From: an uncultured Rhodospirillaceae bacterium | GTDB lineage: Bacteria; Pseudomonadota; Alphaproteobacteria; Rhodospirillales; UBA2165 | Assembly (NCBI GenBank): GCA_964643045.1 | Contig: CAZXSC010000001.1 | Coordinates: forward strand, 66,296-130,295 | Reading direction: 5' to 3' | DNA: 64,000 nucleotides | Notes under the pieces: generated by a model | The model's input: the letters and a program-made list of their open reading frames with translations, nothing else | What the model was told of the DNA's origin: nothing | The model's database searches: none | Shown: positions 14,391 to 58,140 of the stretch, piece after piece | Layout of the letters: each line of letters opens with the position of its first letter | Numbering within the stretch: position 1 is the first letter of the stretch | Made by a program: the position numbers and the translations under genes

Positions 14391-14393
14391 GTA

Positions 14394-16230: not shown

Positions 16231-16242
16231 ATATTAATCAAT

Positions 16243-17013
16243 CTAGTCTAAGCGGCCATTTGTAGAAAGTTTTTGTGCAATCACGAGATCTTGCGGACTG
16301 TCAATTTCTACCCAACCCCCATCTATCTCAATTGCATTGGGTCTATAGCCATTCGTGATCATACCCTGTAGTAGGTCTGTCATGTATAGGTTTTTTAAAT
16401 CTCGCGAACAATTAAATGGGGTCAATCCTTTCTTATTGGCATCTTGAGCTATTGAATATACAGCCTTAAGTTGGTCGATAGCTTTACCTCGGAATATGGT
16501 CATACCAATATATTGGGATTGAATTTGCGATAGATTTCTTGAGTTCTGACCAATTTCTATAATTTCCCTTTTTTTATTTAAGAGAAGTGTTTCAGCATCA
16601 GATAAGGGATCTTCGAAGCGCAGTTTCCAATAGTTCAACCAATCATTATCTATAACAACACCAAAAGAAATTGAAGAATTTAATACTTTTTTAAAAACGC
16701 GCCGTGAATAAGCTATGTCTCCATAACTAACTATAAAATCGCAATCAAAATAACTTTTTGCACAAAATAGTGAATAAACCATATTTGTGGTTTTATAATT
16801 TTCATTCATCACTATTCTTGCTTGGTTGCTAGGTAAGTGATCGGCTCTATAACCACCAACAATAATGATATCATCAACGCCGAGTGATTTGGCAACTTCA
16901 ATTTGTCGATGGATAAGCGGTTGTCCGTTTAGTTCAACCATGCATTTTGGCATAGTCTTTGTTAAAGGTAATAGTCGGGTCCCTTGGCCTGCGGCAAGGA
17001 TTATTAAGCGCAT
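16243..17013 (-). CDS. Nucleotidyltransferase (LicC/GlmU-N-like); candidate CTP:L-glutamine-phosphate cytidylyltransferase (Cj1416-like)
   Basis: 256 aa with the MRLIILAAGQGTRLLPLTKTMPKCMV motif. Its position in the cassette supports the call. Confidence 0.65.
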   Translation of the reverse strand: MRLIILAAGQGTRLLPLTKTMPKCMVELNGQPLIHRQIEVAKSLGVDDIIIVGGYRADHLPSNQARIVMNENYKTTNMVYSLFCAKSYFDCDFIVSYGDIAYSRRVFKKVLNSSISFGVVIDNDWLNYWKLRFEDPLSDAETLLLNKKREIIEIGQNSRNLSQIQSQYIGMTIFRGKAIDQLKAVYSIAQDANKKGLTPFNCSRDLKNLYMTDLLQGMITNGYRPNAIEIDGGWVEIDSPQDLVIAQKLSTNGRLD

Positions 17014-17642
17014 TTTTTAATCCATTGGGAAAATAATTCGTGATCGATCTGTTCTGACGGGCTCTCACGCTCCGGATGCCACTGGACGGCGATAATGGGT
17101 AAGTTCGGGTGGACCAGGCCCTCTATAATTTGGTCATCGCTGATGGCAAAACTCTTTAGCGAAGATGCAAGTTGTCCAATTTTTACGCCTTGATTATGAT
17201 AGCTATTCACCGTTAATAACACATCACTATCAGCGCTGGAAAACTTTTCATCCATGGTGATTGTATGATTGATAGCGACATGATTTTCAGTCAATTGTCT
17301 GCTTAGTCCCCCACCGAAAAAGCGGTTGATAACTTGTAAGCCGCGGCAAACACCGAATACGGGCAGACCTATTTGTGTTGCCTTTGCTAACAATCTTTCT
17401 TCGGCCTGGTCTCGTTCGGACAGCTGCTTCCTTTCACCAAGGCTATTGCCGCCGGTAAGAAGTAATCCGGCCGGTGAGACGGCATCAAAGTAAATAGTAG
17501 GATCGGGTAGGTTGTTAGGTATAAAAATAGGCACGACATTATATTTTGATAGGAACTTAACCCAATCGTGTGCAATAGCGTCTCGACGTTCGATATAGGA
17601 AGTGTTTTCGGAGATACGCATCGAGACAAGGATATTAATCAC
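17004..17642 (-). CDS. Class I glutamine amidotransferase/peptidase C26 (PuuD-like); candidate CDP-L-glutamine hydrolase (Cj1417-like)
   Basis: 212 aa with the nucleophile elbow GVCRGLQVIN and VQWHPE His motif. A GTGA overlap links it to the upstream gene. Confidence 0.65.
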   Translation of the reverse strand: MINILVSMRISENTSYIERRDAIAHDWVKFLSKYNVVPIFIPNNLPDPTIYFDAVSPAGLLLTGGNSLGERKQLSERDQAEERLLAKATQIGLPVFGVCRGLQVINRFFGGGLSRQLTENHVAINHTITMDEKFSSADSDVLLTVNSYHNQGVKIGQLASSLKSFAISDDQIIEGLVHPNLPIIAVQWHPERESPSEQIDHELFSQWIKKCA

Positions 17643-20600
17643 AACCTTTTTACCGTTCCGTTCTGGCCATCAATTTCGATTTCACTACAGCCACGAAGGC
17701 TTTCGAATAATGTTTGGCCGCAGCCGATAGCGGCCGGCAAGCTAAATTCTGCAGCCCTGATGCTCATGTGTGAACCGATGCCGCCGTACTGTGTCAATAG
17801 ACCTACTAAAGAGTGGCTAAAAATCCAGTCGTAACCTGGATCAGCGGAGCGGATTGCTACGATAGCCCCTTCAAGATCGTAGGGTGGTTTTTGATCATCT
17901 AACCATACTATGCGAGCTCTTACGCATTTATGAGTAACGAAATTTGGCTGATGAAGAATGACCTCGAATGCTGAAACATCGTTGACAGTGCGTATCAGCT
18001 CTGGCAGGCGTATGGCACAGGTCAGCACCCATCTTTTTTCATTAAATTCCACCATACGCCGAAAATAACTAGTTTGGGCATTGTTGAAGCTGTCGGTGCC
18101 AAGGCGGAAATATTCGTCAATCGGGATAAAAGCCAGTTGATTGCGGCTAAAGCCTATTTTTTCCCCAAGTAAAGCTACGTTCTCTAGGGCGTCGTTAAGG
18201 TTACGCATAAATTGGAATTTTGCTGATTCCCGTGCTGAAATTGCGCTTCTAACAAAATCGATAAATTTATCAAAACTAATGTTCAATCCTAAATCGCTGA
18301 AACATTTCTCAATATTGCTTGCTTTGTCAGAAAGCACCTCCGCAATGTCCTTGTCTACGGGCGCTTGCAGATGGTCACAAGTACTCTTGAGCATTCTTTG
18401 TTTATTGAAAATTTGCTCTATATCAGAGGAATAGTTGGGTGAGTTGATATCATATGAATGTGGACGCAGATGACCGTAGCGTTCTATCATCTTATCCAAT
18501 TCAAGGCGGTCTTCAGCATAAGCCAACATATCTTCAGAGAAGCGGCTGGCCACTGTCGGAATGCCAAGTAGCACGTTTTCAAACTCCACTTCCTCTATGA
18601 CTCCACAATCCCGCAATCCTCTCAGTAAGGTCATAGCAATAAAAGCGTAGCGCGCTAGGATAGAAAAAGACACAATCCCATAATTTTGGCAATCTTTAAG
18701 CAAATTTCGAATATGCCGTGCAATGTCAGCGACTGTCTCGTGCGGCTCTTCTATTAGTTGATTGCGACGATCTTCTAGTATATTGAGTGAATTTTGAAGG
18801 TCTATGATAGGTTCTACACTTCCATTAACGATATTTTGCGTAAGTTCTCTTAAACAGAACTTGAAGGTTTCAATTTGTTCAGGACTGAGACCAGCTTCTT
18901 GCATACGTTTAGCTTGTTGTGGCCAATCAGGCGCTAGACAAGTGGCAGCAATTTCAAACTCTATTTTGTCGTGAAGATGAGGTTGTTGGCACAGGCGCTC
19001 AATGTTAGCGTTAATCCAATTTTCGGCAATTGAAGTTTCTAAACCATCAGGTAGGAAAGAATTCAAGCTGGCACGCACATCGACATAGGGTCTACCTGCG
19101 ACGGAAACAATAAGAGCCTCAGGATCAACTTTCCTATAACCAATCCGAGCACGTGCTTTGGCCCAACTCAAGTCGCCAATTAAAGTTTGGTAAATGCTCA
19201 AGGCTAATGGATTAGGTGTTTCTCCGAGCATTTCGACTGGATTCCAATCCGGCATCGAACCAAGGACTGATGTTTTGCCCAATACCCCATTGCGGGGCCT
19301 CATTAAGGACCGAATAAATTCCTGAGCACCAGTCACCATGTCAAAAAAATCATCTTCGGCAATTGGCAAATTTTTGGTGTTCGTCAGTGGCCTAATTTGG
19401 AAAAGATGACAGGTACTATTTCGGTCGATTCCGTATTCAATATTCAATGTATTGATGTGAGACAGCGCCATCATCTCTTGGCCCAGCTTAAAAGTTTTCT
19501 GTGCCGTTTGAGGGAGGTGCGATATGTCGTGTCCAGGTAAAGCATAATATGTTTTAAGATTTCCCTTGCCTCCCGAGGTAACCAGATCTGAGCGTCCGGT
19601 AGTCTCGTCTGCATTAATAATGAGATAGGGGGCTCCGCTTCGTGGATCTTCAGTTAGTAAAACACCACTTGAAAGTAAACCTTCTACTTGAGGTTGTATC
19701 AGAACTTCATCTTTAGTAGACCTAATTCGACCATTTCTGGAAAAGCTGTTTATGACCTGCTGGATCGCGTTAGTGAGTTGCTTTTTATTGGTGGGATCAA
19801 CGTCAAGAATTGAATCAAAAGCACCCGCAGCCGAAAACTCATATTGGTCCTCGCTTGTAGTGGAGCTGCGGACGATTAAAGGTCCTTTGGGGAAAGCTTT
19901 TTTTATGGATACTAATATCTTCGTTGCGTTATTTTCCCAGCGGGCAACCGAAAAACGCTCTCTTGCTAGGACCCGTGCTTCTTTTGCTAGTGGCGCAATA
20001 TGATCCAGTGTTTGTGCTTTACCTTTAAATACAGTTTGTGAAATTTTGACTTTGTCAGTGATTAAAGCGGCTAAGTCATCAAGGTCAACGTTTTTACTCG
20101 TGTTACCAATCAGGGCCTGCTGAAGGTCATTAAAGTTAGCTAAGGGATCTTTTTTGACTAATTTTTTTGCGGCTGATAAGAATAGATCGAATGACCCTGA
20201 CCTAACGCGCATAGCAACTGTCACTTGATTGTTAGAAGATGTACGAACATTTCCAAAAGTTATGCCTTGTCCAGAATGTAGGTTAAGGAAGAATTTTGGC
20301 AGGTAAAGGACGTCTGCGCGGACGATAATTGTTTCAAGGGGCTTGTCTGTTGCTAGCAGCATAGATACTAGGTCCCCCTGATTCAGGCGGTCTTTTTGAT
20401 AAATCAATTTAAGGTTGGGATAACTCTGAAGCACTTTTTCAATGTGATAGCCACCGACATATGAAATGCCACAGTCATCTAAATTTTTTAATGCGTGGAG
20501 CAACCATTCCATTACGGGCTTGTTGAAGGTTTTATCTCGATCAAGAGAGTGCGGTTGGCTTTTTTGAGGGTCTAGACGGCGTGTGCCTTCGGCTGGCTCA

Positions 20601-20683
20601 ATGATGATCACGGCAGGTGCGCTTTCCCTGTCCGGGGGCTCGGCAAGATTATTGGTGAAGTTATTATGTTGTTGTTTAGTCAT
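17639..20683 (-). CDS. PEP-utilising-enzyme family protein (PpsA/PPDK architecture) with an N-terminal nucleotidyltransferase-like extension; candidate L-glutamine kinase (Cj1418-like)
   Basis: 1014 aa. ATP-grasp region LIVRSSTTSEDQYEFSAAGAFDSILDV. C-terminal phospho-His swivel domain GGIGSHMSIRAAEFSLPAAIGCG. About 215 N-terminal residues contain VIIIEPAEGTRRL, a degenerate LAAGxGTRL. Confidence 0.65.
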   Translation of the reverse strand: MTKQQHNNFTNNLAEPPDRESAPAVIIIEPAEGTRRLDPQKSQPHSLDRDKTFNKPVMEWLLHALKNLDDCGISYVGGYHIEKVLQSYPNLKLIYQKDRLNQGDLVSMLLATDKPLETIIVRADVLYLPKFFLNLHSGQGITFGNVRTSSNNQVTVAMRVRSGSFDLFLSAAKKLVKKDPLANFNDLQQALIGNTSKNVDLDDLAALITDKVKISQTVFKGKAQTLDHIAPLAKEARVLARERFSVARWENNATKILVSIKKAFPKGPLIVRSSTTSEDQYEFSAAGAFDSILDVDPTNKKQLTNAIQQVINSFSRNGRIRSTKDEVLIQPQVEGLLSSGVLLTEDPRSGAPYLIINADETTGRSDLVTSGGKGNLKTYYALPGHDISHLPQTAQKTFKLGQEMMALSHINTLNIEYGIDRNSTCHLFQIRPLTNTKNLPIAEDDFFDMVTGAQEFIRSLMRPRNGVLGKTSVLGSMPDWNPVEMLGETPNPLALSIYQTLIGDLSWAKARARIGYRKVDPEALIVSVAGRPYVDVRASLNSFLPDGLETSIAENWINANIERLCQQPHLHDKIEFEIAATCLAPDWPQQAKRMQEAGLSPEQIETFKFCLRELTQNIVNGSVEPIIDLQNSLNILEDRRNQLIEEPHETVADIARHIRNLLKDCQNYGIVSFSILARYAFIAMTLLRGLRDCGVIEEVEFENVLLGIPTVASRFSEDMLAYAEDRLELDKMIERYGHLRPHSYDINSPNYSSDIEQIFNKQRMLKSTCDHLQAPVDKDIAEVLSDKASNIEKCFSDLGLNISFDKFIDFVRSAISARESAKFQFMRNLNDALENVALLGEKIGFSRNQLAFIPIDEYFRLGTDSFNNAQTSYFRRMVEFNEKRWVLTCAIRLPELIRTVNDVSAFEVILHQPNFVTHKCVRARIVWLDDQKPPYDLEGAIVAIRSADPGYDWIFSHSLVGLLTQYGGIGSHMSIRAAEFSLPAAIGCGQTLFESLRGCSEIEIDGQNGTVKRL

Positions 20684-20689
20684 AGAAAT

Positions 20690-22702
20690 CTAAGGCATAT
20701 TTTCACTATAAAGGAAATAAAAGAAATCATCATAATCGGTATATTTAAATAACTCTTTCAGGTTTTTCCACTCCAATTGATAAGCTTTCCGGCGGTGCTT
20801 CAAATAATCTTGCCTATTAGGCAGATCCGTTACTAATTCGGCAAGGCAATTCTCATTCCCAGAGCGTTCGACGATAGTATTATCAAGTACCACTGCATCC
20901 ATTTCGGAATAGGCCATGAATCTAAGTAAGTCCGCAAAGTCGATAATTATGCTCTCGCCTGACATGTTAAGGCTGGTATTCATGAGAACGCCAACACCAG
21001 TTTGCTGTTTGAATTCATTGAGGATAGAAAAAAGTTTGGGGTTAAAGTCCTGTTCCAATGTTTGTACACGTGCCGTAAGGTCATGATGAATAACAGCACC
21101 AAGACAGTCACGCGCTTCATTATTCATTCTTGGTGCAAGTAACATGTATGGACTGTCAGTGACCTCACTTTCGTTACCCCAATATTTTTCAGCTTCTTGT
21201 TTTAGCATTACCGGGGCAAATGGGCGAAAGTCCTCTCTATGTTTAATAGTTTTGTTGACTCGTGGCCAGTTTTCATAAGGCCGTGGATCTGCAAGGATTG
21301 AACGGAAACCAAGGGCTCTGGGACCGAATTCATATCGGCCTGACATATACCCAATCACGTTGCCTTTGGCTATTAAGCTAGCCACGTTTTTCGGCGTAAA
21401 ATCAGTGTATTTGAAACCCTTTTTATCGAGAAATTTTTTGATCTGTTGAGGATCATTTCTTGTGCCATAATTGTTAAAATAACGTAGCCGTTTCTCTCTT
21501 TTAGCCCGCTGATTACCATTTAGTTCATTGTGGCGTAGAAGAAGAGCCGCCCCTAGCGCGGTGCCATCATCGCCGCAAGGTGGAATCAAAAAAGGTTTGA
21601 TTTTTAATTTGGCGCGTAACTTTTCGTTCATTACACAATTCAGGGACAGACCACCCGAAAAAACAACATTCCGTGTATTGAGCATTTTACAGGCGTTTTT
21701 GACCAATTGGGCACAAACTCGTTCAGTGGTTTTTTGTACTGCGTATGCGATTGCCATGTGGCGGTCATTTATTGATTCGTCGTCCTTTCGTTTAGGACCA
21801 ATTATTTTTATAAGTAATTTCTTGAAATTGAGTCGCTGGCTTTGTGAATAGGATAACAATTCGTCGTTGAACGTAAAATCAAATTGTTTATTATCGACCT
21901 TAATTAGTTGATCAATTATTGATACAAATCGATTATCACCATAAGCAGCTAAGCCCATCAATTTGCCTGGACCTTCAATGCGACTGAAGCCAACATATTC
22001 TGCAAACACTTCATAAAACGTTCCGATAGACAAGGGGTGTTGGATCTCAGCTACGCGGACCATTTTTTCTCCCTTACCGTGAGTAAGCACTGTACTATCG
22101 AATTCACCCCGGCCATCCCACGTCACTATGGCAGCATTATCGAAGGGGCTTGCAAAGTAAGTGGCGGCGTGAGTATCGTGATGGCGAAATCCAGTTATTG
22201 GCACCGTAGGCAGGAATCGTGAGATGTTTATCTCGGTGGCCAATTCGTTTAGATAGCGTACAAGCAGATAACAGATATTCTTTCGTAGAGACAGATTATC
22301 ACTCGCCGATGGCAGTCCACTTATTAGTCCCTTAATTTTTTCTGGCAGGAAGTCAATGTGTGGAAATGCTTCGTCGCTACGGTTGAGAATAGTCGCAAGC
22401 TCATGGCGCAGCCGTCGTTCTGTTTTGGCATCAAAACTACCTTCAAAGTATGACTGCGGAGGGAATTTGAAACAATTACGATCGCGGGAATAGGCTACGG
22501 CAGAAATGTTTTCAGCCCCAATTTGCTCTATCGCCAATTTTAGCGATTTAAAAGGAAAACCAAAATGATGAGATATTCCTGAATGACGATCTTCGGATAA
22601 AAGCAGTACTGGTTCATTCATCTCTGCACTAAGTACACAAACCGCGGCATCGTGAAACGATCCATTTATGCCAATGACGTAAGGTTTTGCCAGTGTTGAC
22701 AT
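20690..22702 (-). CDS. Carbamoyltransferase (NodU/CmcH family)
   Basis: About 670 aa with YVIGINGSFHDAAVCVL and GFRHHDTHAATYFASPFDNAAIVTWDGRGE, typical of the carbamoyltransferase N domain, plus a long C domain. The ATG at 22702 is preferred over the TTG at 22705. Confidence 0.8.
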   Translation of the reverse strand: MSTLAKPYVIGINGSFHDAAVCVLSAEMNEPVLLLSEDRHSGISHHFGFPFKSLKLAIEQIGAENISAVAYSRDRNCFKFPPQSYFEGSFDAKTERRLRHELATILNRSDEAFPHIDFLPEKIKGLISGLPSASDNLSLRKNICYLLVRYLNELATEINISRFLPTVPITGFRHHDTHAATYFASPFDNAAIVTWDGRGEFDSTVLTHGKGEKMVRVAEIQHPLSIGTFYEVFAEYVGFSRIEGPGKLMGLAAYGDNRFVSIIDQLIKVDNKQFDFTFNDELLSYSQSQRLNFKKLLIKIIGPKRKDDESINDRHMAIAYAVQKTTERVCAQLVKNACKMLNTRNVVFSGGLSLNCVMNEKLRAKLKIKPFLIPPCGDDGTALGAALLLRHNELNGNQRAKREKRLRYFNNYGTRNDPQQIKKFLDKKGFKYTDFTPKNVASLIAKGNVIGYMSGRYEFGPRALGFRSILADPRPYENWPRVNKTIKHREDFRPFAPVMLKQEAEKYWGNESEVTDSPYMLLAPRMNNEARDCLGAVIHHDLTARVQTLEQDFNPKLFSILNEFKQQTGVGVLMNTSLNMSGESIIIDFADLLRFMAYSEMDAVVLDNTIVERSGNENCLAELVTDLPNRQDYLKHRRKAYQLEWKNLKELFKYTDYDDFFYFLYSENMP

Positions 22703-22786
22703 CAATTTCTATTCGATTTTGGTAAATTATTTGATGATGTTTGTAGCAAGGACGTGTATCAATCTATTCGAGTGTTTCTTTTACAG

Positions 22787-22803
22787 CGTTCAAGCTTTGA
22801 ACA
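22787..22803. promoter_or_regulatory. Palindromic site cGTTC-N7-GAACA (copy 4) in the gap upstream of the carbamoyltransferase gene
   Basis: The sequence read directly is cGTTCaagctttGAACA. It is also an extended palindrome GTTCAA-gct-TTGAAC. Confidence 0.3.
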
Positions 22804-37075: not shown

Positions 37076-38839
37076 TTATAATTTTTGCATTTTCACTAAT
37101 TTGGAAAAATGGCCGCCGTTATTTATTAGCTGACTAAAATTCCCACTCTCAATAATTTTTCCACTGTCAAGTACATATATGCTATTTGCCTTTTTAATGG
37201 TTGATAATCGATGAGCAATAATGAGCAAAGTTGTTTTGCGGGCAATTTTTTCAATCGAATCTTGAATTAACCGCTCGCTCTCGGTGTCTAGAGCACTTGT
37301 TGCTTCATCTAATAAAAGCAGATCAGGTTTACGTACCAAAGCCCTTGCTAAGGCGATTCGTTGCACTTGCCCGCCGGATAATTGGACACCGCGATCACCT
37401 ACGATCGTTTCAAGGCCGTTTTCAAGCTCGTTGATGAATTCGTTTGCATTCGCCTGACGACAGGCTTCTATTATATCATCGTTTGAAGCGGTTGGTTGAG
37501 CCCATAAAATATTTTTTCGGACAGACTCGTTGAAAAGAGAACTTTGTTGGGGCACGTAACCAAGACATTTTTTATATGATGTGATATCAAATTTATCGAA
37601 GGTTAAATCATTGATAATTATTTTTCCGTCGCTGATTTCATGAAGACCTAAGAGTATATCAGCAATAGTTGACTTGCCTGCACCAGAGGCTCCAACTAAT
37701 GCGGTTATTTCGTTCTTTGGGATAATTAAATTAATGTTTTCAAGAACGTTCTTCTTACCGGTATATGAAAAAGTGACATTATTAAATATTATAGGTTTTT
37801 TTAAATTGTCGAACTTGATTGTTCCAAAATTTGGCCGGTTAGTTTTTGCCTCGCTTCGTATATTGTTAATCTTCTCATAGCTAGGAACAAGTGTTAGCAG
37901 CTGATTCATGTTTGTTGATATTGCTCTTAATACGGCTGAAAGCCTATGGAAGGCTAGCAACATGACCACCGTTTCTGATATGCCAATGTTCAATTTTTGA
38001 CCAATTATATATGTGAAGAAAACTAAAATGATGCCAATAGGGTTATAGGCATAGAATACGGCGGACTGAATTATTTGAAGATTAATAGAAGTTTTGCGAA
38101 CTTTAGAGAATGATTTATCTAGTCGTTCTACTTCTTGAGTTTCATTTGCAAATCCAGAAATAATGCCGATATTTGAGAGAATTTCTTGTAATGTTGAACT
38201 AAATTCATTTGATACTTCAACATTTTTTTTCCCCCAATTGTATAGATGTTTTTGAGCTATCCTTAGGGGTGAAATTAATATGATAGCAAAAAAAATTGCT
38301 AGTGCTGATGTTTGTACGGAAATGTAAAAAGGTATAGCCAATAATACACCAGCTTGGATAAAGGGAGCAATTGATCGCGAAAGGGAGGTGAATGCATCTG
38401 CAACCTGCGCCACCTCTTTTATCATCACATTTATAAAATCACCTTGTCTCTTTCGATTTATGAAATTCATGCTGGAATAAAGCAAATCCTCGCATAAACC
38501 CAATGTGTAGGCTCTTCTAACGATAAATTGGCTCTTCAAAAGAAAATAAGTAATACCTACAGATATAAGACTACTAGCGACGCTCAAGGATACAAAAAGC
38601 GATATAAATCCCACTAAATTATCCGGCTGAATTCCAAAACTCTGGCATACATCAAAAATGGATTTGGCAATACCTTGAGGTGCATTTTCATTAGTAACTA
38701 ATGCGACGATCGGAGCGATTGAAATTACGTTGGCTGTATCAACAATAACGAGGAGCAAAGCCAAGCCTATATTAACAATAAATAAGCGAGGAAACTTGTT
38801 AAACAAGCCTGAGCAAAAGAAAAATAATAATTTAAGCAT
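37076..38839 (-). CDS. Fused ABC exporter (TMD-NBD, MsbA/PglK-like)
   Basis: 587 aa with six predicted N-terminal TM helices. Walker A GASGAGKST, signature LSGGQVQRIALARAL, Walker B LLLLDEATSALD. Confidence 0.88.
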   Translation of the reverse strand: MLKLLFFFCSGLFNKFPRLFIVNIGLALLLVIVDTANVISIAPIVALVTNENAPQGIAKSIFDVCQSFGIQPDNLVGFISLFVSLSVASSLISVGITYFLLKSQFIVRRAYTLGLCEDLLYSSMNFINRKRQGDFINVMIKEVAQVADAFTSLSRSIAPFIQAGVLLAIPFYISVQTSALAIFFAIILISPLRIAQKHLYNWGKKNVEVSNEFSSTLQEILSNIGIISGFANETQEVERLDKSFSKVRKTSINLQIIQSAVFYAYNPIGIILVFFTYIIGQKLNIGISETVVMLLAFHRLSAVLRAISTNMNQLLTLVPSYEKINNIRSEAKTNRPNFGTIKFDNLKKPIIFNNVTFSYTGKKNVLENINLIIPKNEITALVGASGAGKSTIADILLGLHEISDGKIIINDLTFDKFDITSYKKCLGYVPQQSSLFNESVRKNILWAQPTASNDDIIEACRQANANEFINELENGLETIVGDRGVQLSGGQVQRIALARALVRKPDLLLLDEATSALDTESERLIQDSIEKIARKTTLLIIAHRLSTIKKANSIYVLDSGKIIESGNFSQLINNGGHFSKLVKMQKL

Positions 38840-46742: not shown

Positions 46743-47648
46743 TCAGGTAATTTTGCGCAGTTGTTCGCGAAAAGTTTTGGCAATTACGTATGCGAATATG
46801 GAAAATGGAGACTCTAATATAACCTCGCCAAATAATTTTATTCCATCACCTATTTTTTCAGCCTGGATGAGATTTAGAGCCAATCTGAATTTAGCCTTCG
46901 TTATATGATGTTGTCCCTTTGAATGGGATGTCCTCGTTAAGAAGGGCAAATCTTGGGCATATTTTAATAAATTCAGAAAATCTTGATTAAATAAAATATT
47001 GGCACCTGGTTGTTTTGATTCTTGATTATTATGCTGCCGCATTTTTACTAGCGGTTCTCCAATGGAACAAATTTTTCCTCCTGCATACAAAATATCGAGT
47101 GCCATTCGATAATCACATGCGAGAGAATATCTAGTATTGTACCCACCAAATTGACTGGCAAGTGACCGACGAAACATAACACTAGAATGGGCCAATGGGT
47201 TCATCCAAGCATATTGTTGCATCAAGTTAGCGGATTGAACAGGTGGCGAGTAAAAAAAAAGGTGATTGCCATTTTCGTTAATCCATTCGACACTAGTACC
47301 AACCAGCCCGATATCGGGTCTATTTTCCAGCAGTTGCACTTGTTTTTGGATTCTGTTTTTATCTGAGATATCGTCACTATCCTGAACAGAAATAAAATCA
47401 CCCGTTGCAGCATTAAACGCTTTAGAAATACCCGAGGCGAAGGTGCTATTAAGCTTTGGGTGAACTGAAATAACTTTTAGGCGGGGGTAATTAAATTCAT
47501 CCAATATTCTAGCGGTTCCATCCGTTGAGCCATTATTAACAACGATTATTTCCGTATCGATGAATGATTGTGCCGATAAACTGTGAAGAGCATCTGCTAG
47601 AAATTGTTCCCCATTTCGGACCGTCATAATTTGGCTTACGCGTGGCAT
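46743..47648 (-). CDS. Family 2 glycosyltransferase
   Basis: SQIMTVRNGEQFLADALHSLSAQSF, IIVVNNGSTDGT and the QDSDD DxD motif; 301 aa. Confidence 0.85.
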   Translation of the reverse strand: MPRVSQIMTVRNGEQFLADALHSLSAQSFIDTEIIVVNNGSTDGTARILDEFNYPRLKVISVHPKLNSTFASGISKAFNAATGDFISVQDSDDISDKNRIQKQVQLLENRPDIGLVGTSVEWINENGNHLFFYSPPVQSANLMQQYAWMNPLAHSSVMFRRSLASQFGGYNTRYSLACDYRMALDILYAGGKICSIGEPLVKMRQHNNQESKQPGANILFNQDFLNLLKYAQDLPFLTRTSHSKGQHHITKAKFRLALNLIQAEKIGDGIKLFGEVILESPFSIFAYVIAKTFREQLRKIT

Positions 47649-47794
47649 TAACTTGGATCTATTCTAAATAAGGGATAATTTACCCCAACTGTTAAGATAT
47701 TAAATGGGTATGATGGGAGATTTTTACGCAGAAAATTTATTTGGAAGATAAGACTAGTAAACCTAGAAAGGGTCAAATATGACATGATAAAAAC

Positions 47795-48292
47795 TTAAAT
47801 ATTTATTGCTGATGAAGGTAGACGCACGCGCACGGGACGCCCCATTAGGTTAAGCAAAATAACTACGCGTTCGTCATCATTCTGACATTCGAAAATGCCG
47901 ATGTGTTCGTTAAAAGCACCAGCAGTGATTTGTACTTGGTCCCCAGGTTTAATATTTAATTGTCTATTTAGAGAAACAATACCTTCATCGTCTTCCCGAG
48001 CTCGAATTTCATCTAGTAATTCTGTTGGAACTGGAGTTGGCAAAGCGCCAAATTGGACGAGTTTTTTCACGCCGATTGTAGAATTAATGCAGGACCAGTT
48101 TTCCTTATTGAGGTCAAATTCAACGAATAAATATTTTGGGAAAAGAGGTGCCAAGACACTATCTATGCGGCGTGCATGGCGTCTATGTTTTTTATATTGT
48201 GGTAAATATACTTTGAATTTCTGTTGTTTTAAATTAAGAAGAGCTTTGGGCTCTTCCCGTGACTTGGTGTTAACAACGAACCATTGTTTCAT
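47795..48292 (-). CDS. rfaH: RfaH-like specialised NusG paralog (operon-specific transcription antiterminator)
   Basis: 165 aa. WFVVNTKSREE, PLFPKYLFVEFD, VQFGALPTPVP and the KOW segment PGDQVQITAGAFNEHIGIF, ILLNL closely parallel my recollection of E. coli RfaH (PLFPNYLFVEFD, VRFGASPAIVP, PGDKVIITEGAFEGFQAIF, LLLNL). Confidence 0.75.
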   Translation of the reverse strand: MKQWFVVNTKSREEPKALLNLKQQKFKVYLPQYKKHRRHARRIDSVLAPLFPKYLFVEFDLNKENWSCINSTIGVKKLVQFGALPTPVPTELLDEIRAREDDEGIVSLNRQLNIKPGDQVQITAGAFNEHIGIFECQNDDERVVILLNLMGRPVRVRLPSSAINI

Positions 48293-48978
48293 TTTATGTA
48301 GTTCAAATTAGAGGTGTTTTCGGATTCATATTTTGCTTGATCCCGAACAATACCTAGTATGGGAGCTGTTAGAATCTGGTCACGCGGAAAAAATTGCACT
48401 GCTTTATCAAATGTTTCCTGCGGTTTTCTCATATCGGTTATAAGAAGAACGTGTAGGGGATTTAGCTCGGCGAGTTTACCCACAACAGGTAAATCCATAT
48501 AAGTGGATGTTGAGGAAGCGGCCTCGGCATCAATAATGCCAGCCAATTTAATTTTTAGTTCGACCGCACTCAAGATAGTTATTTCAGTCAGATCACTTTT
48601 TCCTACTAGGGCGATTCGGTTCCATCCTTTTTCATTACAACTTTGTAAAAGTTCTACTGATTGGGCTCGTGCAAGCCGAAAGAAATCAAATGATTGTTTT
48701 AGGTATTCTGCTGTAAGCCGGCCTTTTTCTGCAAATCCACGGGGTGTAAGATAATAAGCATATCTATTCGAGGGTATTTGTTGTACCTTGATAAGGCCTT
48801 TTTTGGCGCATCTTTTCAGATACGAATTGGTTAGGCCAAGGGCCACACCTAATTCGGCAGATAAAGAGCGCTGAGTAATTGTGCTATTTTCTCCAACAAC
48901 GTCGAGCAAGTTAAGTGTAATCCGCTCATCATTCTTTAAATTTTCATGTGATGGGTTTGAATCTGGCACCGGTTTCAT
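48289..48978 (-). CDS. Winged-helix (MarR-like, EPS-associated type) transcriptional regulator with a C-terminal Rossmann-like domain
   Basis: ITQRSLSAELGVALGLTNSYLKRCAKKGLIKVQQIPSNRYAYYLTPRGFAEKGRL is the wHTH. The C-terminus reads IALVGKSDLTEI...LPVVGKLAEL...VLLITD. It is the first gene after the control region, with GAGG upstream of the ATG. Confidence 0.65.
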   Translation of the reverse strand: MKPVPDSNPSHENLKNDERITLNLLDVVGENSTITQRSLSAELGVALGLTNSYLKRCAKKGLIKVQQIPSNRYAYYLTPRGFAEKGRLTAEYLKQSFDFFRLARAQSVELLQSCNEKGWNRIALVGKSDLTEITILSAVELKIKLAGIIDAEAASSTSTYMDLPVVGKLAELNPLHVLLITDMRKPQETFDKAVQFFPRDQILTAPILGIVRDQAKYESENTSNLNYIK

Positions 48979-49098
48979 ATTGCCTCAAGAAATTAATTGT
49001 GATGTCTGCTGATAGATTTTTTGGCAGATACTTTTCGCTATTGTCACTATTCTCAGTAGAGATTTCCAATCAGATCTTTAATACGATTTTTAATTAGG

Positions 49099-49110
49099 CA
49101 CGCTACCGCA
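49099..49110 (-). promoter_or_regulatory. ops-like (JUMPstart core) RfaH recruitment element
   Basis: The minus strand reads TGCGGTAGCGTG, matching 11 of 12 bases of the E. coli ops consensus GGCGGTAGCGTG. It lies in the non-template strand of the leader, about 120 nt upstream of the first gene. Confidence 0.5.
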
Positions 49111-49257
49111 CTTCGGGTGAAAAGCAGAATTCCAAAGCACTAATTAAACACCCATTTTTGTTCAAACATTGCGCTTAAAGCGTCTATCGCCCAAAGGAGG
49201 ACGGTTTTCTCCAGATGTATATTTCTACATCCTATTTGTGGACAACTCACAATCATG

Positions 49258-49274
49258 TGTTCGGCCGTTGAACA
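49258..49274. promoter_or_regulatory. Palindromic operator-like site TGTTC-N7-GAACA (copy 1)
   Basis: The sequence read directly is TGTTCggccgttGAACA. Confidence 0.4.
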
Positions 49275-49384
49275 ATGCCTTTATTTACCAGAAAAAACTC
49301 TAAAATTATGGTTAGTTTTAGGTTTTTCGGTAGAAAAATCCCTAGATCTCAACGTAAATAAATTTTTTACGGTTTAAATAAGGT

Positions 49385-49401
49385 TGTTCATAGAATGAAC
49401 A
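49385..49401. promoter_or_regulatory. Palindromic operator-like site TGTTC-N7-GAACA (copy 2, overlaps the predicted -10)
   Basis: The sequence read directly is TGTTCatagaatGAACA. Confidence 0.4.
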
Positions 49402-49426
49402 TACAGTTTTGGCTAGATGCTGTCAA
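49398..49426 (-). promoter_or_regulatory. Candidate sigma70-type promoter for the leftward operon
   Basis: The minus strand reads TTGACA (49426-49421), then a 17-nt spacer, then TATGTT (49403-49398). This is a prediction by eye only. Confidence 0.3.
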
Positions 49427-49429
49427 TAT

Positions 49430-49446
49430 TGTTCGTAATGTGAACG
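49430..49446. promoter_or_regulatory. Palindromic operator-like site TGTTC-N7-GAACg (copy 3, just upstream of the predicted -35)
   Basis: The sequence read directly is TGTTCgtaatgtGAACg, with one mismatch at the last base. Confidence 0.35.
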
Positions 49447-51712: not shown

Positions 51713-52396
51713 TTATTCATTCAGAACTGATTTGGCTATTTTCCAATCCCACTCTGTATCAATATCGATGCACTCAGCAGGATGGTCCATTACTAACGGG
51801 ACCAAACCATCTTTAAAAAAAGAATTGTTTGTCCGCAGGTCTCTAGGGGAAATAAGGAAGAACGCACCGTTAACGGAGTAGGCGGGTGACAATTCTTGGG
51901 ATTGCAGGTGCAAGCCACCGCCACTAATGTATGGTTTCATCATTTGGCCCTCTATTTTAAAACACCACATGGGATGTGAATTGGCAGGCGATACGCCTAT
52001 GACAGAGTGGTTTTGATTGTTTTTGAAAAGTGCGATGCCACGCAATACGGTGTCTCGACTGCGAAAAGGTGATGTTGGTTGTAGTAATAATAGTCCATCA
52101 ACGTTGCCTTTCTTACGTTCATACCAATCAAGTGCATGCAATACAACAGCTGCAGAGGAAGCCGTATCACTGGCTAACTTTGTGGGTCGTAACCAGGGAA
52201 CTAGCGCTCCACTTTTTTCGGAAATTATTGCAATCTCCTTGTCGTCGGTAGAAACTAAAATGTCGCAAATGTCTTTGATGCCTTTCGCAACATCGATGCT
52301 CCAAACGATCAAAGGTTTTTCACCCAGAAGTTTAATGTTTTTTCCTGGGAGTCGTTTTGAACCGCCTCTGGCTGTGATAACTGTAAGTATTCTCAT
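51713..52396 (-). CDS. CMP-nonulosonate synthetase (NeuA/LegF-type cytidylyltransferase)
   Basis: Start reassigned to ATG 52396 (MRILTVITARGGSKRLPGKN), forming an ATGA overlap with the upstream stop. Confidence 0.8.
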   Translation of the reverse strand: MRILTVITARGGSKRLPGKNIKLLGEKPLIVWSIDVAKGIKDICDILVSTDDKEIAIISEKSGALVPWLRPTKLASDTASSAAVVLHALDWYERKKGNVDGLLLLQPTSPFRSRDTVLRGIALFKNNQNHSVIGVSPANSHPMWCFKIEGQMMKPYISGGGLHLQSQELSPAYSVNGAFFLISPRDLRTNNSFFKDGLVPLVMDHPAECIDIDTEWDWKIAKSVLNE

Positions 52397-53040
52397 AGTG
52401 TTAAAAACCGTTTCAGCACTTTCAAGCCTACCTCCCCACTTTTCTCTGGATGAAATTGGCAACCTATCACATTGTCGCGTGCTATAAGCACCGAAATTGA
52501 ATTGTCTCCATAAATACAATCAGCTACACGATGGTCGTCGTCATTGGGAATTGCCATAAAGGAATGTACAAAATAAACTGTATCACTCGAATTAATATCT
52601 TGTAGCACAGTGTTTCCCCAGTTTTTTCGGCCCTGTGCCAAAACTAGAACGTTCCAACCTATATGTGGAATTTTCTGAATGTGACCAGTTACAGTGGTTG
52701 TTGGTATCGCAATTACGCGGCCTGGGATCAACCCCAGCCCTTTGGTTATGCCAAACTCCTCGCTTTCATCGAGTAACAATTGCATACCAAGACAAATACC
52801 CATCAGCGGTATTCCGCGACCAGCGACCTTTCGCACTACCTCATCAAGGCGTAGCCGATGGAGTTCCATCATAGCATTACCGAACGCGCCTACACCGGGT
52901 AGCACTACGTGTGAGGAAGAAAGTATGGTATTGGGATCGGCAGTTACGGTGACCATTGCACCACAATGTTCCAGCCCACGGCGCACGCTGAGTAGATTGC
53001 CCATGCCGTAGTCGATTACCGCAACATCAGGTAGGCTCAT
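52393..53040 (-). CDS. HisH-like glutamine amidotransferase subunit (WbuY-type, glycan amidation)
   Basis: VAVIDYGMGNLLSV, catalytic GICLGMQLL and GCQFHPEKS. The start is 53040 (MSLPD) or 53055. Confidence 0.8.
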   Translation of the reverse strand: MSLPDVAVIDYGMGNLLSVRRGLEHCGAMVTVTADPNTILSSSHVVLPGVGAFGNAMMELHRLRLDEVVRKVAGRGIPLMGICLGMQLLLDESEEFGITKGLGLIPGRVIAIPTTTVTGHIQKIPHIGWNVLVLAQGRKNWGNTVLQDINSSDTVYFVHSFMAIPNDDDHRVADCIYGDNSISVLIARDNVIGCQFHPEKSGEVGLKVLKRFLTL

Positions 53041-53797
53041 AATTTCGCACCTCAATTCTTGCCGCTTTAGCTGCTTTCCTAATATTAGCTACCGTAGCAC
53101 GGCCGTAATGCAATATATCGGCCATAGCTACAGCATCTGCGCCACCTTGTTTGATTGCATCTACCAAGTCAGTCGGTTCACCTACACCGCCACTGGCTAT
53201 CACTGGTACGGAAACTTCCGCTGTCACAGCACTTACTAGCGCAAGGTCAAGGCCCTTTCGAGTGCCTTCCCGGTCGACCGATGTAAGTAATATTTCACCC
53301 GCACCCATCTTTACTCCGCGCTTTACCCAATCAATAACGTCTAAACCTGTCCGCTCTCTACCATTATCTGTATAAACTTCCCAGCTTTCAGGAGCCACCT
53401 GTTTGGCTTCGATCGAAAGCACCATGCACTGACTGCCATAACATCTAGCTATATTGGTAATTAATTGGGGATCAGCAACAGCTGCGGTATTTATCGCAAC
53501 TTTGTCGGCTCCCGATCGTAGTATTTGCATAGCGTCGTCTGTCGATCGTATGCCACCACCTACCGTCATTGGAACGAAGATGTTTCTTGCTGCAGCACTA
53601 ACTATAGCGCCCAGGTGATTGCGGCCATAAAGACTTGCCACACAATCCATATAAATTAACTCGTCTATCCCTTGTAGATAATAACGCAACGCGTGCTCGT
53701 TGGGTGAGCCAATAACGCGAAGGCCTTCAAGGTGAACACTTTTGATAAGATTAGGTCCCTTGATATCGAGACGAGCGATTAGCCGGATATTTCGCAT
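53027..53797 (-). CDS. HisF-like cyclase subunit (WbuZ-type, glycan amidation)
   Basis: RLIARLDIKGPNLIKSV, GADKVAINTAAV and GAGEILLTSVDREGT; 256 aa. Confidence 0.8.
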   Translation of the reverse strand: MRNIRLIARLDIKGPNLIKSVHLEGLRVIGSPNEHALRYYLQGIDELIYMDCVASLYGRNHLGAIVSAAARNIFVPMTVGGGIRSTDDAMQILRSGADKVAINTAAVADPQLITNIARCYGSQCMVLSIEAKQVAPESWEVYTDNGRERTGLDVIDWVKRGVKMGAGEILLTSVDREGTRKGLDLALVSAVTAEVSVPVIASGGVGEPTDLVDAIKQGGADAVAMADILHYGRATVANIRKAAKAARIEVRNYEPT

Positions 53798-54968: not shown

Positions 54969-55602
54969 CTACTCGTCTCTTTATTTTTAAGCTTTCTTAT
55001 GCTTTAGGGATTCTTATTCAATACAAGAAAAGTTTCATTTTATTCATCAGCATGACAACTCTCAATATATGCTACATTTAGTAACTTTTTGCAAATTAGC
55101 TTTGAGCGTAAATTAGAATTATGAGCTCAAAAGGTGTTACGTCAGATACGGATTTAATGTTGGTTGGCTTTTTTAGTTATTTTTAAAAGGTTTGCGTTGC
55201 TTAATGCGTTTAAATAGACGCGTCGTAGTTAGTCGTAATTTAGTATATTTGGATAGTGGAACAGGATCAACTAATGCCAATTTTGAATCATAAGAATTAG
55301 GGAAAGTTATCTAATGAACAAGTCAATTGATTAAAAATCAAATATCTGGGACATCGAGAACACATGGTATTTGAGGGCTAATCAAGAAAGAGTGGCAACG
55401 TTGATACAAACTATTGTAGTTCAGATCAATCATACAAAGGGAACTATTACCGCCGATATACTTCTCAGAGCCTAGTATATCATAAAGTTTTTGATAAATA
55501 TTGTCGTTTCTCATAGAAACGAATAGAGTTGATTATCGCCTAAGAATTTCTGACTAATTATAGCGGTCTTGTTTAATGGTTAACTGAGGAATAATTATAG
55601 TG

Positions 55603-56115
55603 ATGAGTAGAGGTGGCATTAAAAATTATAATGTAATAGTGCAAAAAGTTGATAATAAATTTCATCTTACTATTGCAGAATTAATGATTTCAGTTTCTGG
55701 TGAGGATCTTGTTGAGGTTTATCACGGGCTTGAGTCCAAAAAGGAAGAAGCCCTTCGGTCGATGAAAGAATCTGGCATGGATTACATAATACCTTCCCCC
55801 AATATACACCACAATGTTAGTCTACCAACAGGTCGACGTTTGTTTTGGGATGAAATTCTCATGTTTCTCGCAAAATTGACGATTCTCGGATTAATAATTG
55901 CACTTCTTGGCGGTATTTTTTATCAATTCGGTAAGCCCTTGATAACTGGATTTACACATAAAATAAAAATGATACCAAATAAAATGACAAAAATACCACA
56001 AGATAAAGTTATCGATGCCGCTGAAAAAACAAAAGAGTTAATAAAAAAGTTCTCACCAATATTAGATGAGATCAAACCTTTGTACGACCCTGAACCGGCG
56101 AATAGAAAAAAATAG
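55603..56115 (+). CDS. Hypothetical single-pass membrane protein (170 aa)
   Basis: The ATG at 55603 follows GAGGA. There is one hydrophobic helix, ILMFLAKLTILGLIIALLGGIFY. The N-terminal approximately 60 aa has a beta-alpha pattern faintly like HicB/UPF0150. Confidence 0.5.
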   Translation: MSRGGIKNYNVIVQKVDNKFHLTIAELMISVSGEDLVEVYHGLESKKEEALRSMKESGMDYIIPSPNIHHNVSLPTGRRLFWDEILMFLAKLTILGLIIALLGGIFYQFGKPLITGFTHKIKMIPNKMTKIPQDKVIDAAEKTKELIKKFSPILDEIKPLYDPEPANRKK

Positions 56116-56165
56116 GAAAGCTGTTTGTGGCTTTTAGGCCCCTTTTTTGAGTAATAATTTAATAA

Positions 56166-58046
56166 ATGGTTCGATTCAATTTACACCCTAGTATCAGGTT
56201 GGATGGAATACCAACCAACTCCTACAATTTACGTGTGAGGGTTTTGGTTTTTATAGCTTTTTTATTTTTCACCTTGGTTTTAGCTGGGATAACGCAAATT
56301 CCCGTTTTGGGGATTTGGGAAAGTTTTACATTTTTTCACAATTTTTCACCTGTTGATGCCCATCTGTCATTTAGGATTAGTGCTCGAGCCAATATTGCGG
56401 GTCAAGGTTATGCGTTGCTTGATATTTCAAGAATGATATCCGATTGGTTTGGATGGTCCATAATGACGTTTAGGCTGCCTTCATTGGTCATCGGCTGGAT
56501 TGGTTTGGGTTTCTTCTTCACAATAGCCGCGCGTATAGTTGGATTCTTGCCCGCTTTGTTGGCGTCGATTCTTCTTGCCACCAATGAAGCTTTTGTTGTT
56601 TTTCAAAGCCAACTAATTGTTTCAATGGTAACTTTCACCCTTTGCTTAATTTTAGTTGAGCGTATTCAGGCACTTGAAGCAAATTCACGGATCAATCAAA
56701 ATGTTATATTGTTGGGCATTTTTACCGCAATAACGGGCACATATTATTCGATGGGGCGTTTCTTTGCACTATTTTTAGTTTCTTTTTTTATTCTAAAATT
56801 CATATATTTAGGCTTTAAGAATTTACCTAGAACATTTGCGATAAAAGAATCAAAAACATTAATTAGCACGCTGTTGCTGTCCGTAATAATTTCGTTTTTC
56901 ATACTATCGCCATTAAACGTAATAGATTTTTTGAGCTTTCCTTCATTTTTTTTCCCAACAAACAGTGAAGTTCATTTTGTATCAGCTGGCTTACTGGATA
57001 CGATTTTTACAAACATAATACTTTTGTTAAAATCACTCACTTATTTAGATGGTTTGCGGCAATCAGCTGATTCGACCGAGTCCCTCGCAAACGTAAATAT
57101 TACGCTGATTTTTCCTTTGTTTTTGCCATTTGTGATTTTGGGGATGATAAAATCCCTGGCCAATAATTATAAGGTTTATTATGGCACATATGCCCCTTAT
57201 GGATTGATAAATTTTCTATTCATAATTACGCTGGTTCCTCCTCTTTTTTCAGCGATTCATAATGGAATACCAACATTCTCGACATTTAGGACTTTTAACA
57301 TTTTAATACCTGCTTATCTTTATGGTGCTATAGGAATTAACGAGCTAATGAATAAATATTCTAAATATAATGGAGTAGTTTTGGCTTCAATATTGCTATT
57401 ATTCTTTGGCCAGATATATTTGCTTGTTTCGGATCGATTAAGGTTTTCAAATGCGGTTTCAGAATTTGTTTTTGAATTACCGTTAACAAATACAAACACA
57501 AATACTTTGTTTCAAACCTCTGAAATTACTAAAGCTCGGGCAAGGAACAGGAAGTTCATTGCTGATCAGGTGATATATAAAAAATATGCTGAGAAATTCG
57601 TAAAAAATATTTCGGATAAGGAAACCACACTTTTCACGATAGACCTTGGTGAACTATCAAAAAATTCCCTATATCCTCATGGACTGCATTACCTGAAAAA
57701 TAAAAACTACCATTCAACTTTTCTCGCCTTTTATGCATCGGATTTAGGGCTTAATTTAGCATACGTTCAAGCCATTGACGAAAACAGTAGCCAACCAATA
57801 TATGGTAGTGGTTACCGCGGAAAAAAACGCATATTTCCAGCAGAATTTGAGCTTAGAGGTATTCGTCCAGTATACAAAAACCCTGAGAATTTAGAATTTC
57901 AACTAAGGTCAACTGGTCGTGGAAAAATTAAAGCTTATCTTTCGACTACTAAAGAGGAATTAAATTGGACCCTGAAATATTTAGAAAATAAAGGAGAGGC
58001 ATTTAGTGTCGTAAAGATATCTTATCAGAATGGTCCTGATAGATGA
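56166..58046 (+). CDS. Polytopic membrane protein (626 aa) with a C-terminal soluble domain; possible GT-C-type glycosyltransferase or polymerase
   Basis: There are at least 10 hydrophobic segments in residues 25-430, then a hydrophilic approximately 190-aa tail. No motif recognised with certainty. Confidence 0.45.
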   Translation: MVRFNLHPSIRLDGIPTNSYNLRVRVLVFIAFLFFTLVLAGITQIPVLGIWESFTFFHNFSPVDAHLSFRISARANIAGQGYALLDISRMISDWFGWSIMTFRLPSLVIGWIGLGFFFTIAARIVGFLPALLASILLATNEAFVVFQSQLIVSMVTFTLCLILVERIQALEANSRINQNVILLGIFTAITGTYYSMGRFFALFLVSFFILKFIYLGFKNLPRTFAIKESKTLISTLLLSVIISFFILSPLNVIDFLSFPSFFFPTNSEVHFVSAGLLDTIFTNIILLLKSLTYLDGLRQSADSTESLANVNITLIFPLFLPFVILGMIKSLANNYKVYYGTYAPYGLINFLFIITLVPPLFSAIHNGIPTFSTFRTFNILIPAYLYGAIGINELMNKYSKYNGVVLASILLLFFGQIYLLVSDRLRFSNAVSEFVFELPLTNTNTNTLFQTSEITKARARNRKFIADQVIYKKYAEKFVKNISDKETTLFTIDLGELSKNSLYPHGLHYLKNKNYHSTFLAFYASDLGLNLAYVQAIDENSSQPIYGSGYRGKKRIFPAEFELRGIRPVYKNPENLEFQLRSTGRGKIKAYLSTTKEELNWTLKYLENKGEAFSVVKISYQNGPDR

Positions 58047-58064
58047 TTTGGCCATTACTATTTA

Positions 58065-58078
58065 AGAAAACGTTTTCT
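58065..58078. terminator. Short perfect palindrome between convergent genes (weak bidirectional terminator candidate)
   Basis: AGAAAACGTTTTCT lies 19 nt after the plus-strand stop. The stem is AT-rich with no loop, so it is a weak candidate. Confidence 0.2.
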
Positions 58079-58140
58079 GAATTTAGGCACTATCAGGAGA
58101 GCACCAATATATTAAGTTAAGTTTGTAATAGTTAATTTGT

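Follow-up and report, generated by a model that had tools for sequence, protein, structure and literature searches.

One sequence cluster of RfaH paralogues, CL4, has been associated, in a single sentence, with a neighbouring helix-turn-helix (HTH) regulator, and the RfaH clusters CL2-CL8 were reported to sit among envelope-polysaccharide genes (Wang et al. 2020, mBio, PMC7593976). A gene pair that fits the description of CL4, and is a candidate match by that description only, is present in a 64,000-nucleotide stretch of DNA from an uncultured Rhodospirillaceae bacterium (contig CAZXSC010000001.1, positions 66,296 to 130,295), which is called the window below, all positions being those of the whole stretch. 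Here the gene of a 229-amino-acid (aa) winged-helix regulator is followed by the gene of an RfaH-like NusG paralogue, and a palindrome, TGTTC-N7-GAACA, occurs three times in front of the pair and a fourth time inside the glycan gene cluster that follows. We consider it probable that the palindromes are operators for a homodimer of the adjacent regulator, which would repress its own promoter at the head of the cluster. The publication on CL4 (PMC7593976) names no regulator family, operator, promoter architecture or mechanism, and our literature searches on the motif, and on RfaH in combination with MarR, winged-helix, alphaproteobacteria or Rhodospirillales, gave no description of the regulator beyond the CL4 sentence.

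Among characterised regulators, the MarR-type autorepressors (MarR/marO, MexR, FabT) are alike in that a winged-helix homodimer is expected on a palindrome over its own -35/-10 region, often with two sites. However, the regulator of the window is longer (229 aa against about 140-150 aa for MarR proteins) and, in place of the N- and C-terminal helical dimerisation bundle of MarR, has a 38-residue helix and a Rossmann-like domain. It scores below the thresholds of the Pfam MarR models PF01047 (16.9 bits, cut-off 24.6) and PF12802 (18.9 bits, cut-off 27), the one model to pass its threshold being HTH_24 (E 4.5e-9, 36.2 bits). The best NCBIfam match is TIGR04176, MarR_EPS (residues 18-106, E 1.4e-17, 63.6 bits, under the cut-off of 88), which is also linked to exopolysaccharide loci, but its model of 105 positions does not include the C-terminal domain of the regulator; to our knowledge, this family has not been characterised experimentally. 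Rex repressors share with the regulator an N-terminal winged helix, a C-terminal Rossmann-type sensor, a length of about 210-230 aa and palindromic operators at promoters, and the Rex-family protein RSP (3wg9) is among the fold matches of the isolated C-terminal domain (TMq 0.56-0.57, with a marginal E of 0.07-0.12). Yet the regulator carries a G-x-S-D-L loop instead of the GxGxxG of Rex, its operator (TGTTCA-N5-TGAACA, consensus YGTTCR-N5-TGAACR) is unlike the Rex operator TTGTGAA-N4-TTCACAA, no Pfam match to the N-terminal DNA-binding domain or the CoA-binding-type Rossmann domain of Rex was obtained even at E values up to 10, and no Rex protein was matched by sequence in the PDB. The regulator therefore remains under the membership thresholds of MarR, TIGR04176 and Rex alike.

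Two further systems resemble the locus as a whole. As in the RfaH/ops system, a specialised NusG paralogue and an ops element head a very long glycan operon; as in the UpxY/UpxZ system of Bacteroides, the NusG paralogue is encoded within the locus beside a second regulatory gene. UpxZ, however, is no DNA-binding repressor, whereas the partner here is predicted to be a DNA-binding regulator that acts at initiation through its own operator, and the UpxY model gives the RfaH paralogue a score of 80.3, below its cut-off of 100. As predicted from sequence, the pair of regulator and palindrome fits the functional class of autoregulated palindrome-binding repressors, and its standing as a new regulator-operator pair of an ordinary kind is well supported. 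Since a palindromic operator over a promoter is a textbook arrangement, what is gained is an assignment, not a new principle.

The four palindromes, to which no strand is assigned, were numbered 1-4, and their positions relative to transcription are counted from a start site predicted near 49391 from the promoter hexamers, at the usual 7-nt distance from the -10 element. Copy 1 (TGTTCGGCCGTTGAACA, 49258-49274, 17.6 bits) falls in the transcribed leader at about +118 to +134, copy 2 (TGTTCATAGAATGAACA, 49385-49401, 20.1 bits) covers about -10 to +7, and copy 3 (TGTTCGTAATGTGAACG, 49430-49446, 18.3 bits) extends from about -55 to -39; copy 4 (CGTTCAAGCTTTGAACA, 22787-22803), with 20.5 bits the top score of the window, is located in a 151-bp gap between genes. 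The original prediction, made from the letters of the window, had named three copies in the control region (TGTTCggccgttGAACA at 49258-49274, TGTTCatagaatGAACA at 49385-49401 and TGTTCgtaatgtGAACg at 49430-49446) and a fourth (cGTTCaagctttGAACA) at 22787-22803, and the repeated palindrome is read at every one of these coordinates. A half-site TGTTC, which had been listed with them, is likewise present at 49159-49163, but is not significant: it has no N7 partner and no matrix score, and some 125 occurrences of such a pentamer are to be expected over the two strands of 64 kb, so it was taken as chance.

The significance of the copies was assessed with a weight matrix that was trained only on the sites of distant relatives (L001-L042) and then run over the window. 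Exactly four sites stand out, those scored above, and the next best match reaches 8.8 bits; with the same matrix, shuffled windows contain on average 0.44 sites that reach 12 bits. All four sites are intergenic in a window of which intergenic DNA makes up 7% (P = 2.4e-5). The core GTTC-N7-GAAC matches the window five times against 0.74 expected, and none of 100 shuffles reached five. A looser pattern with one mismatch is unimpressive window-wide (six matches against 2.3 expected, with 4 of 100 shuffles reaching six). Two one-mismatch matches, at 37987-38003 (7.4 bits) and 47053-47069 (3.2 bits), are located within coding sequence and depart from the motif at conserved positions; they are best read as chance and were discarded as sites.

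Conservation of the motif was followed in two sets of related loci. The first comprised 42 loci from species-representative genomes, all of them metagenome-assembled genomes (MAGs) of Alpha- and Gammaproteobacteria with regulators 38-58% (mostly 38-52%) identical, and one close metagenome relative (L043); the independent set comprised 72 metagenome loci, in which a site was counted within 350 bp upstream of the regulator gene. GTTC-N7-GAAC was found upstream of the regulator gene in 43 of 43 loci of the first set, with 62 sites in 15.9 kb of upstream DNA against 4 in 248.6 kb of flanks (about 240-fold enrichment), and in 72 of 72 loci of the independent set, with 147 sites in 26.2 kb against 2 in 276 kb (about 620-fold). 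Thus, the palindrome is conserved across species upstream of the regulator's own gene: it adjoins the same gene in more than 110 distantly related bacteria of two classes, with regulators 38-77% identical and over a wide range of GC content, and is nearly absent from the approximately 525 kb of flanking DNA of both sets. The relatives' sites give the consensus YGTTCR-N5-TGAACR, in which GTTC and GAAC are invariant in 58 distinct sites and the N5 and the flanks vary. The phylogenetic footprinting that had been suggested thus supports, at the level of sequence, the proposal that the palindrome is the operator of the adjacent dimeric regulator.

Some arrangements in the relatives go beyond a single control region. 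One Hyphomicrobiales MAG contig (176 kb; L001/L002) carries two regulator-rfaH-ops modules 18 kb apart, the proximal control regions of which are identical. In several loci another two sites are found about 290-315 bp upstream of the regulator, and this second pair possibly serves a divergent or preceding gene.

The position of the sites with respect to the promoter points to the way in which they may act. The 596-bp gap upstream of the regulator contains a sole sigma-70-like match, TTGACA-17-TATGTT on the minus strand (49426-49398), with the -35 hexamer TTGACA at 49421-49426 and the -10 hexamer TATGTT at 49398-49403. This is the promoter candidate of the original prediction, and its hexamers are conserved in relatives: ATTGAC is invariant in five aligned control regions, and TATGTTC is conserved in L043, L047, L049 and L051. 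Copy 2 shares TGTT with the -10 hexamer, the last four bases of the hexamer being the first four of the operator, and copy 3, centred at about -47, stops 4 nt short of the -35 hexamer on its upstream side, in agreement with the earlier description of copy 2 as covering the -10/+1 region and copy 3 as abutting the -35.

The same module recurs in the closest relatives (L043, L047, L048, L049 and L051, with regulators 67-74% identical), here called the window clade. In L043, L047, L049 and L051 it reads as a site, 4 nt, TTGACn, 17 nt and TATGTTCA...GAAC; L048 has kept the upstream site and the -35 hexamer, and its -10 hexamer and second site are degenerate. The counterpart of copy 3 stands at the same place relative to TTGAC in all five, and the spacing of the sites is a constant 45 bp wherever both are intact. 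In the alignment of five control regions mentioned above, where mean column identity is 33%, the invariant columns are the half-sites and the promoter hexamers only. More distant loci follow two other designs. In the Alpha type (20 loci), which can be written as TTGA|CGTTCA..TGAAC-nnnTAn|GTTC, the -35 hexamer TTGACG overlaps the first site, this site fills the 18-bp spacer, and the second site begins inside the -10 hexamer (TAnGTT/TAnnGT). In the Gamma type (9 loci), TTGAnn-17/18-TATAGT|GTTCA, the -10 hexamer TATAGT runs directly into GTTCA. A recognisable promoter with a site over -10/+1 was thus found in 29 of the 42 distant loci and in four close relatives, and is degenerate in the fifth (L048), so that in the window, in L043, L047, L049 and L051 and in these 29 loci a site overlaps predicted core promoter elements. 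Neighbouring sites of the relatives are 22-23 bp apart in 27 of 38 pairs, and this spacing, together with the 45 bp of the window clade, suggests that several dimers may bind in an ordered manner.

A site over the predicted -10/+1 region is the common denominator of the three clades and corresponds to the geometry of an autorepressor, and for this reason repression is favoured over activation. The same regulator might, on the same sites, act mainly as an activator or in a dual function, with copy 3 recruiting RNA polymerase to a weak -10 and copy 2 tuning the response. Some MarR-like proteins do activate, copy 3 is centred just upstream of the -35, the -10 hexamer TATGTT departs from consensus, and a pair of sites brackets the promoter in all window-clade loci. 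We nevertheless regard activation as rather unlikely, because the feature that the promoters share is the site over -10/+1 and because the other positions would exclude polymerase: a further site fills the -35/-10 spacer in the 20 Alpha-type loci, and the sole promoter-proximal site of the 9 Gamma-type loci covers -10/+1. Nor do the spacers, at 17-18 bp, have the 19-20 bp of those MerR-type activators that bind within the spacer, and the protein is not MerR-like.

The identity of the binding protein also has to be considered. The palindrome could instead serve an unlinked regulator that controls envelope genes globally, with the adjacent winged HTH protein recognising another target; binding by the adjacent protein is our inference, and linkage alone cannot single this protein out since the motif is accompanied by the RfaH paralogue and by glycan genes as well. 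This alternative appears improbable for several reasons. The motif tracks the start of the regulator gene, and in Gamma-type loci, where rfaH is upstream, the site lies between rfaH and the regulator; a global regulator would hardly explain the virtual absence of the motif from the flanking DNA; no other DNA-binding protein is conserved in the compared loci; and the motif persists over two classes and a wide range of GC content alongside an invariant recognition helix. In 42 homologues there is little or no variation at A46, L47, G48, L49, N51, Y53, K55 and C57 of this helix or at P69, R72, Y75 and Y76 of the wing, and this invariance mirrors that of the operator, whose half-sites, one helical turn apart, fit two recognition helices in successive major grooves.

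That the copies are chance palindromes, or hairpins of the leader RNA and not DNA operators, is scarcely credible. It is true that a short hairpin can be drawn from every copy, that the one of copy 2 is more stable than those of shuffled sequences (z = -2.8), and that the transcript includes copy 1 and part of copy 2. But the window and comparative statistics rule out chance, the hairpins are weak (-2.5 to -5.2 kcal/mol, three of the four no better than shuffles), copy 3 and most of the relatives' sites lie upstream of the -10 of the promoter, and the stem bases never co-vary and are invariant in sequence, which is the signature of protein-DNA reading and not of RNA pairing.

Several points weigh against the assignment of the palindromes as operators through which the regulator represses its own promoter. 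The position of the start site, and hence the overlap of copy 2 with -10/+1, is deduced from hexamer matches only, and the conservation of promoter and site is not fully separable because the -10 hexamer TATGTT is partly made of the operator itself. The place of copy 3 upstream of the -35, centred at about -47, would suit activation as well. All comparison loci are homologous, so that some of the conservation reflects common descent. The regulator lacks a GxGxxG motif and its matches to nucleotide-binding domains are marginal, which makes any ligand a conjecture. At copy 4, a search for a promoter gave two weak 9/12 matches of poor geometry, neither of them convincing, and no internal site was seen in two relatives over 10 kb (10-kb flanks, L051-L053).

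The regulator itself (48289-48978, minus strand) begins with a winged HTH domain (residues about 16-77), from which a long helix (79-116) leads to a Rossmann-like alpha/beta domain (about 120-205). In the AlphaFold2 model, which is confident (pLDDT 89.5), the winged helix is followed by a helix of 38 residues and an alpha/beta domain with five strands. A fold search with the whole protein returned only MarR domains and O-methyltransferases at low TM-score, MarR structures being the best matches for the N-terminal part and aligning over only about 80-130 residues. The isolated C-terminal domain matched the NAD(P)-binding domains of diaminopimelate dehydrogenases and Gfo/Idh/MocA enzymes, a domain of the WbaP phosphoglycosyl transferase and a Rex-family repressor, all of them marginally (E 1e-3 to 0.1, TM 0.5-0.6). 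Sequence searches of the PDB, with the regulator and with a profile of 42 sequences, gave nothing significant. The glycine loop of this domain reads G126-K-S-D-L (family consensus G-x-S/T/G-D/E-L) instead of GxGxxG, and D150, an acidic residue that ends strand 2, is conserved; the conserved polar residues E132, D150, T181 and Q187 hint at a pocket. The family is large, with 3,150 database matches at E of 0.001 or below; the 120 matches listed are 205-267 aa long and at least 49% identical, and the names of the members of the regulator's family cluster are uninformative.

The autorepression proposed here would work as follows. A dimer on copy 2 would cover the -10 and the start site of the TTGACA-17-TATGTT promoter and block RNA polymerase, and a second dimer on copy 3, beside the -35, would strengthen the repression. 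Copy 1, which lies in the leader at a centre-to-centre distance of 127 bp from copy 2 and in helical phase with it, may add to this by cooperativity, looping or as a roadblock. In this way the regulator would repress its own gene, the RfaH paralogue and the co-directional glycan array of about 48 kb that follows. The input is probably received by the Rossmann-like C-terminal domain, and a small molecule, which could be a nucleotide or a nucleotide-sugar, would free the repressor from DNA. After initiation the RfaH paralogue may load at the ops element of the leader and carry RNA polymerase through the long operon. At copy 4 the same protein might act ahead of a carbamoyltransferase/phosphoramidate-like sub-block, either on an internal promoter or by forming a roadblock.

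The RfaH-like NusG paralogue (165 aa; 47795-48292, minus strand) is encoded directly after the regulator, with an overlap of 4 nt. It passes the Pfam NusG model (PF02357, 78.6 bits, E 5.1e-22), and the best of the NusG-paralogue models is TIGR01955 RfaH, with 134.6 bits under a cut-off of 144.5. A homologue was found in 45 of the first 50 loci, and in nearly all of these its gene adjoins that of the regulator; rfaH directly follows the regulator in Alpha-type loci and lies upstream of it in Gamma-type loci, adjoining it in most.

Its putative target, an ops or JUMPstart-like element (TTTCACCCGAAGTGCGGTAGCGTG, 49099-49123, minus strand), is part of the leader, about 120 nt before the start codon of the regulator gene. 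The counterpart of the ops sequence GGCGGTAGnnTG is TGCGGTAGCGTG, found at 49110-49099 on the minus strand, and the extended element is conserved in relatives. The ops sequence of Escherichia coli is GGCGGTAGCGTG, of which the element of the window matches 11 of 12 bases. A search against Rfam gave only a weak JUMPstart match, at 19.2 bits and thus below the gathering score of 35.

The location of this element sets the window apart. In 73 of the 93 loci with enough sequence, ops comes after the regulator or after the regulator-rfaH pair, and no ops was seen within 600 bp upstream of the regulator in the related loci examined. Conversely, the gap between rfaH and the following GT2 gene of the window (47649-47794) holds no ops, and a decayed copy that was looked for there gave an ambiguous alignment. 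The wiring predicted for the window, with ops upstream of both the regulator and the rfaH gene, is therefore unusual: with ops in the leader, RfaH would load before the regulator and rfaH genes are transcribed and thus act on its own transcript. The leader (48979-49384) is itself unusually long, with about 413 nt from the predicted start site to the start codon, ops lying near +283 and the start codon at +414, against operators about 30-180 bp from the regulator start codon in relatives. About 390 nt of it, carrying ops and operator copy 1, have no counterpart in the aligned relatives; copy 1 likewise has none at its position, the leaders of the relatives being short. A decayed duplicate of the promoter module around copy 1 was sought by eye and by repeat search, and nothing convincing was found. 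The window thus has two features of its own: ops in a 413-nt leader, and a pair of additional operators, of which one is in the leader and the other 26 kb into the cluster.

Only tentatively, and with more doubt than belief, the regulator, the RfaH paralogue and ops can be seen together as a conserved two-tier switch for surface glycans, in which sensor-gated initiation, feedback and control of decoration would be combined. The Rossmann-like domain would read a nucleotide, a nucleotide-sugar or a redox cofactor and gate initiation, and the RfaH paralogue would secure elongation. The move of ops upstream of the regulator and rfaH would let RfaH boost both itself and the repressor, that is, couple positive and negative feedback, and the extra operators, in the leader and before the phosphoramidate/carbamoyl block, would extend the control to glycan decoration. 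Were this two-tier scheme true, the wiring could give pulsed or bistable expression of surface glycans in an uncultured marine bacterium.

As for the simpler assignment of operator to regulator, it concerns a large, undescribed family of regulators that head polysaccharide clusters in many Alpha- and Gammaproteobacteria, mostly uncultured; the family now has a consensus for its operator, an architecture for its promoter and a mechanism that can be tested. The assignment also adds substance to the one-line remark in the literature on an RfaH cluster paired with an HTH regulator. Surface-glycan islands are major determinants of the susceptibility of marine bacteria to phages and grazers, and knowledge of the switch allows regulons to be predicted from sequence alone and offers a handle for the heterologous expression of such clusters. 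As a side observation, the relocation of ops in the lineage of the window merits further attention.

Nearly all genes of the window lie on the minus strand, and their products make sugars and glycans. Upstream of the 596-bp gap is a nonulosonic-acid operon with NeuC-, NeuD-, PseF-, HisH- and HisF-like genes; downstream, the regulator and the RfaH paralogue are followed by about 45 co-directional genes that reach at least position 459, which makes a cluster of about 48 kb. The 151-bp gap that holds copy 4 is one of the few in this array and lies upstream of a five-gene block (12803-22705, minus strand) encoding a NodU-like carbamoyltransferase, a PRK05849-family phosphoenolpyruvate (PEP)-utilising enzyme (1014 aa), a gamma-glutamyl-CDP-amidate hydrolase-like protein, a nucleotidyltransferase and an APS-kinase-like protein. 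The block, here in an uncultured marine bacterium, resembles the O-methyl-phosphoramidate pathway of Campylobacter jejuni (Cj1415-Cj1418). The internal control that had been suggested for this block therefore stands in part: copy 4 is the top-scoring site and intergenic, but there is no convincing promoter beside it.

No species-representative genome carries the locus of the window, and the closest binned regulators, about 52% identical, are from MAGs of Rhodospirillales and other Alphaproteobacteria. About 4.5 kb around the regulator, rfaH and the control region are identical to a scaffold from a marine metagenome (L054; ENA ERZ23498633, SUTE22-1_SAMN10231917 scaffold_70, 206,783 bp). The flanks, with UDP-glucose dehydrogenase, epimerase and asparagine-synthase-like genes, are syntenic with L051 and L053. 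Between the flanks and the regulator the gene content is different, which is what one would expect of a hypervariable glycan island.

Two further stretches of the window deserve mention. In the region 54969-58140, a 631-bp gap is followed by two plus-strand open reading frames (ORFs; 171 and 626 aa) without a Pfam match, which break the minus-strand array and lie in a stretch of low GC content (0.33-0.36). As listed, the minus-strand ORFs 51713-52519 and 52393-53055 have 127 bp in common; they encode a PseF-like cytidylyltransferase and a HisH-like amidotransferase. The true start of the PseF-like cytidylyltransferase is probably further downstream, since the family match begins only at residue 42 or so.

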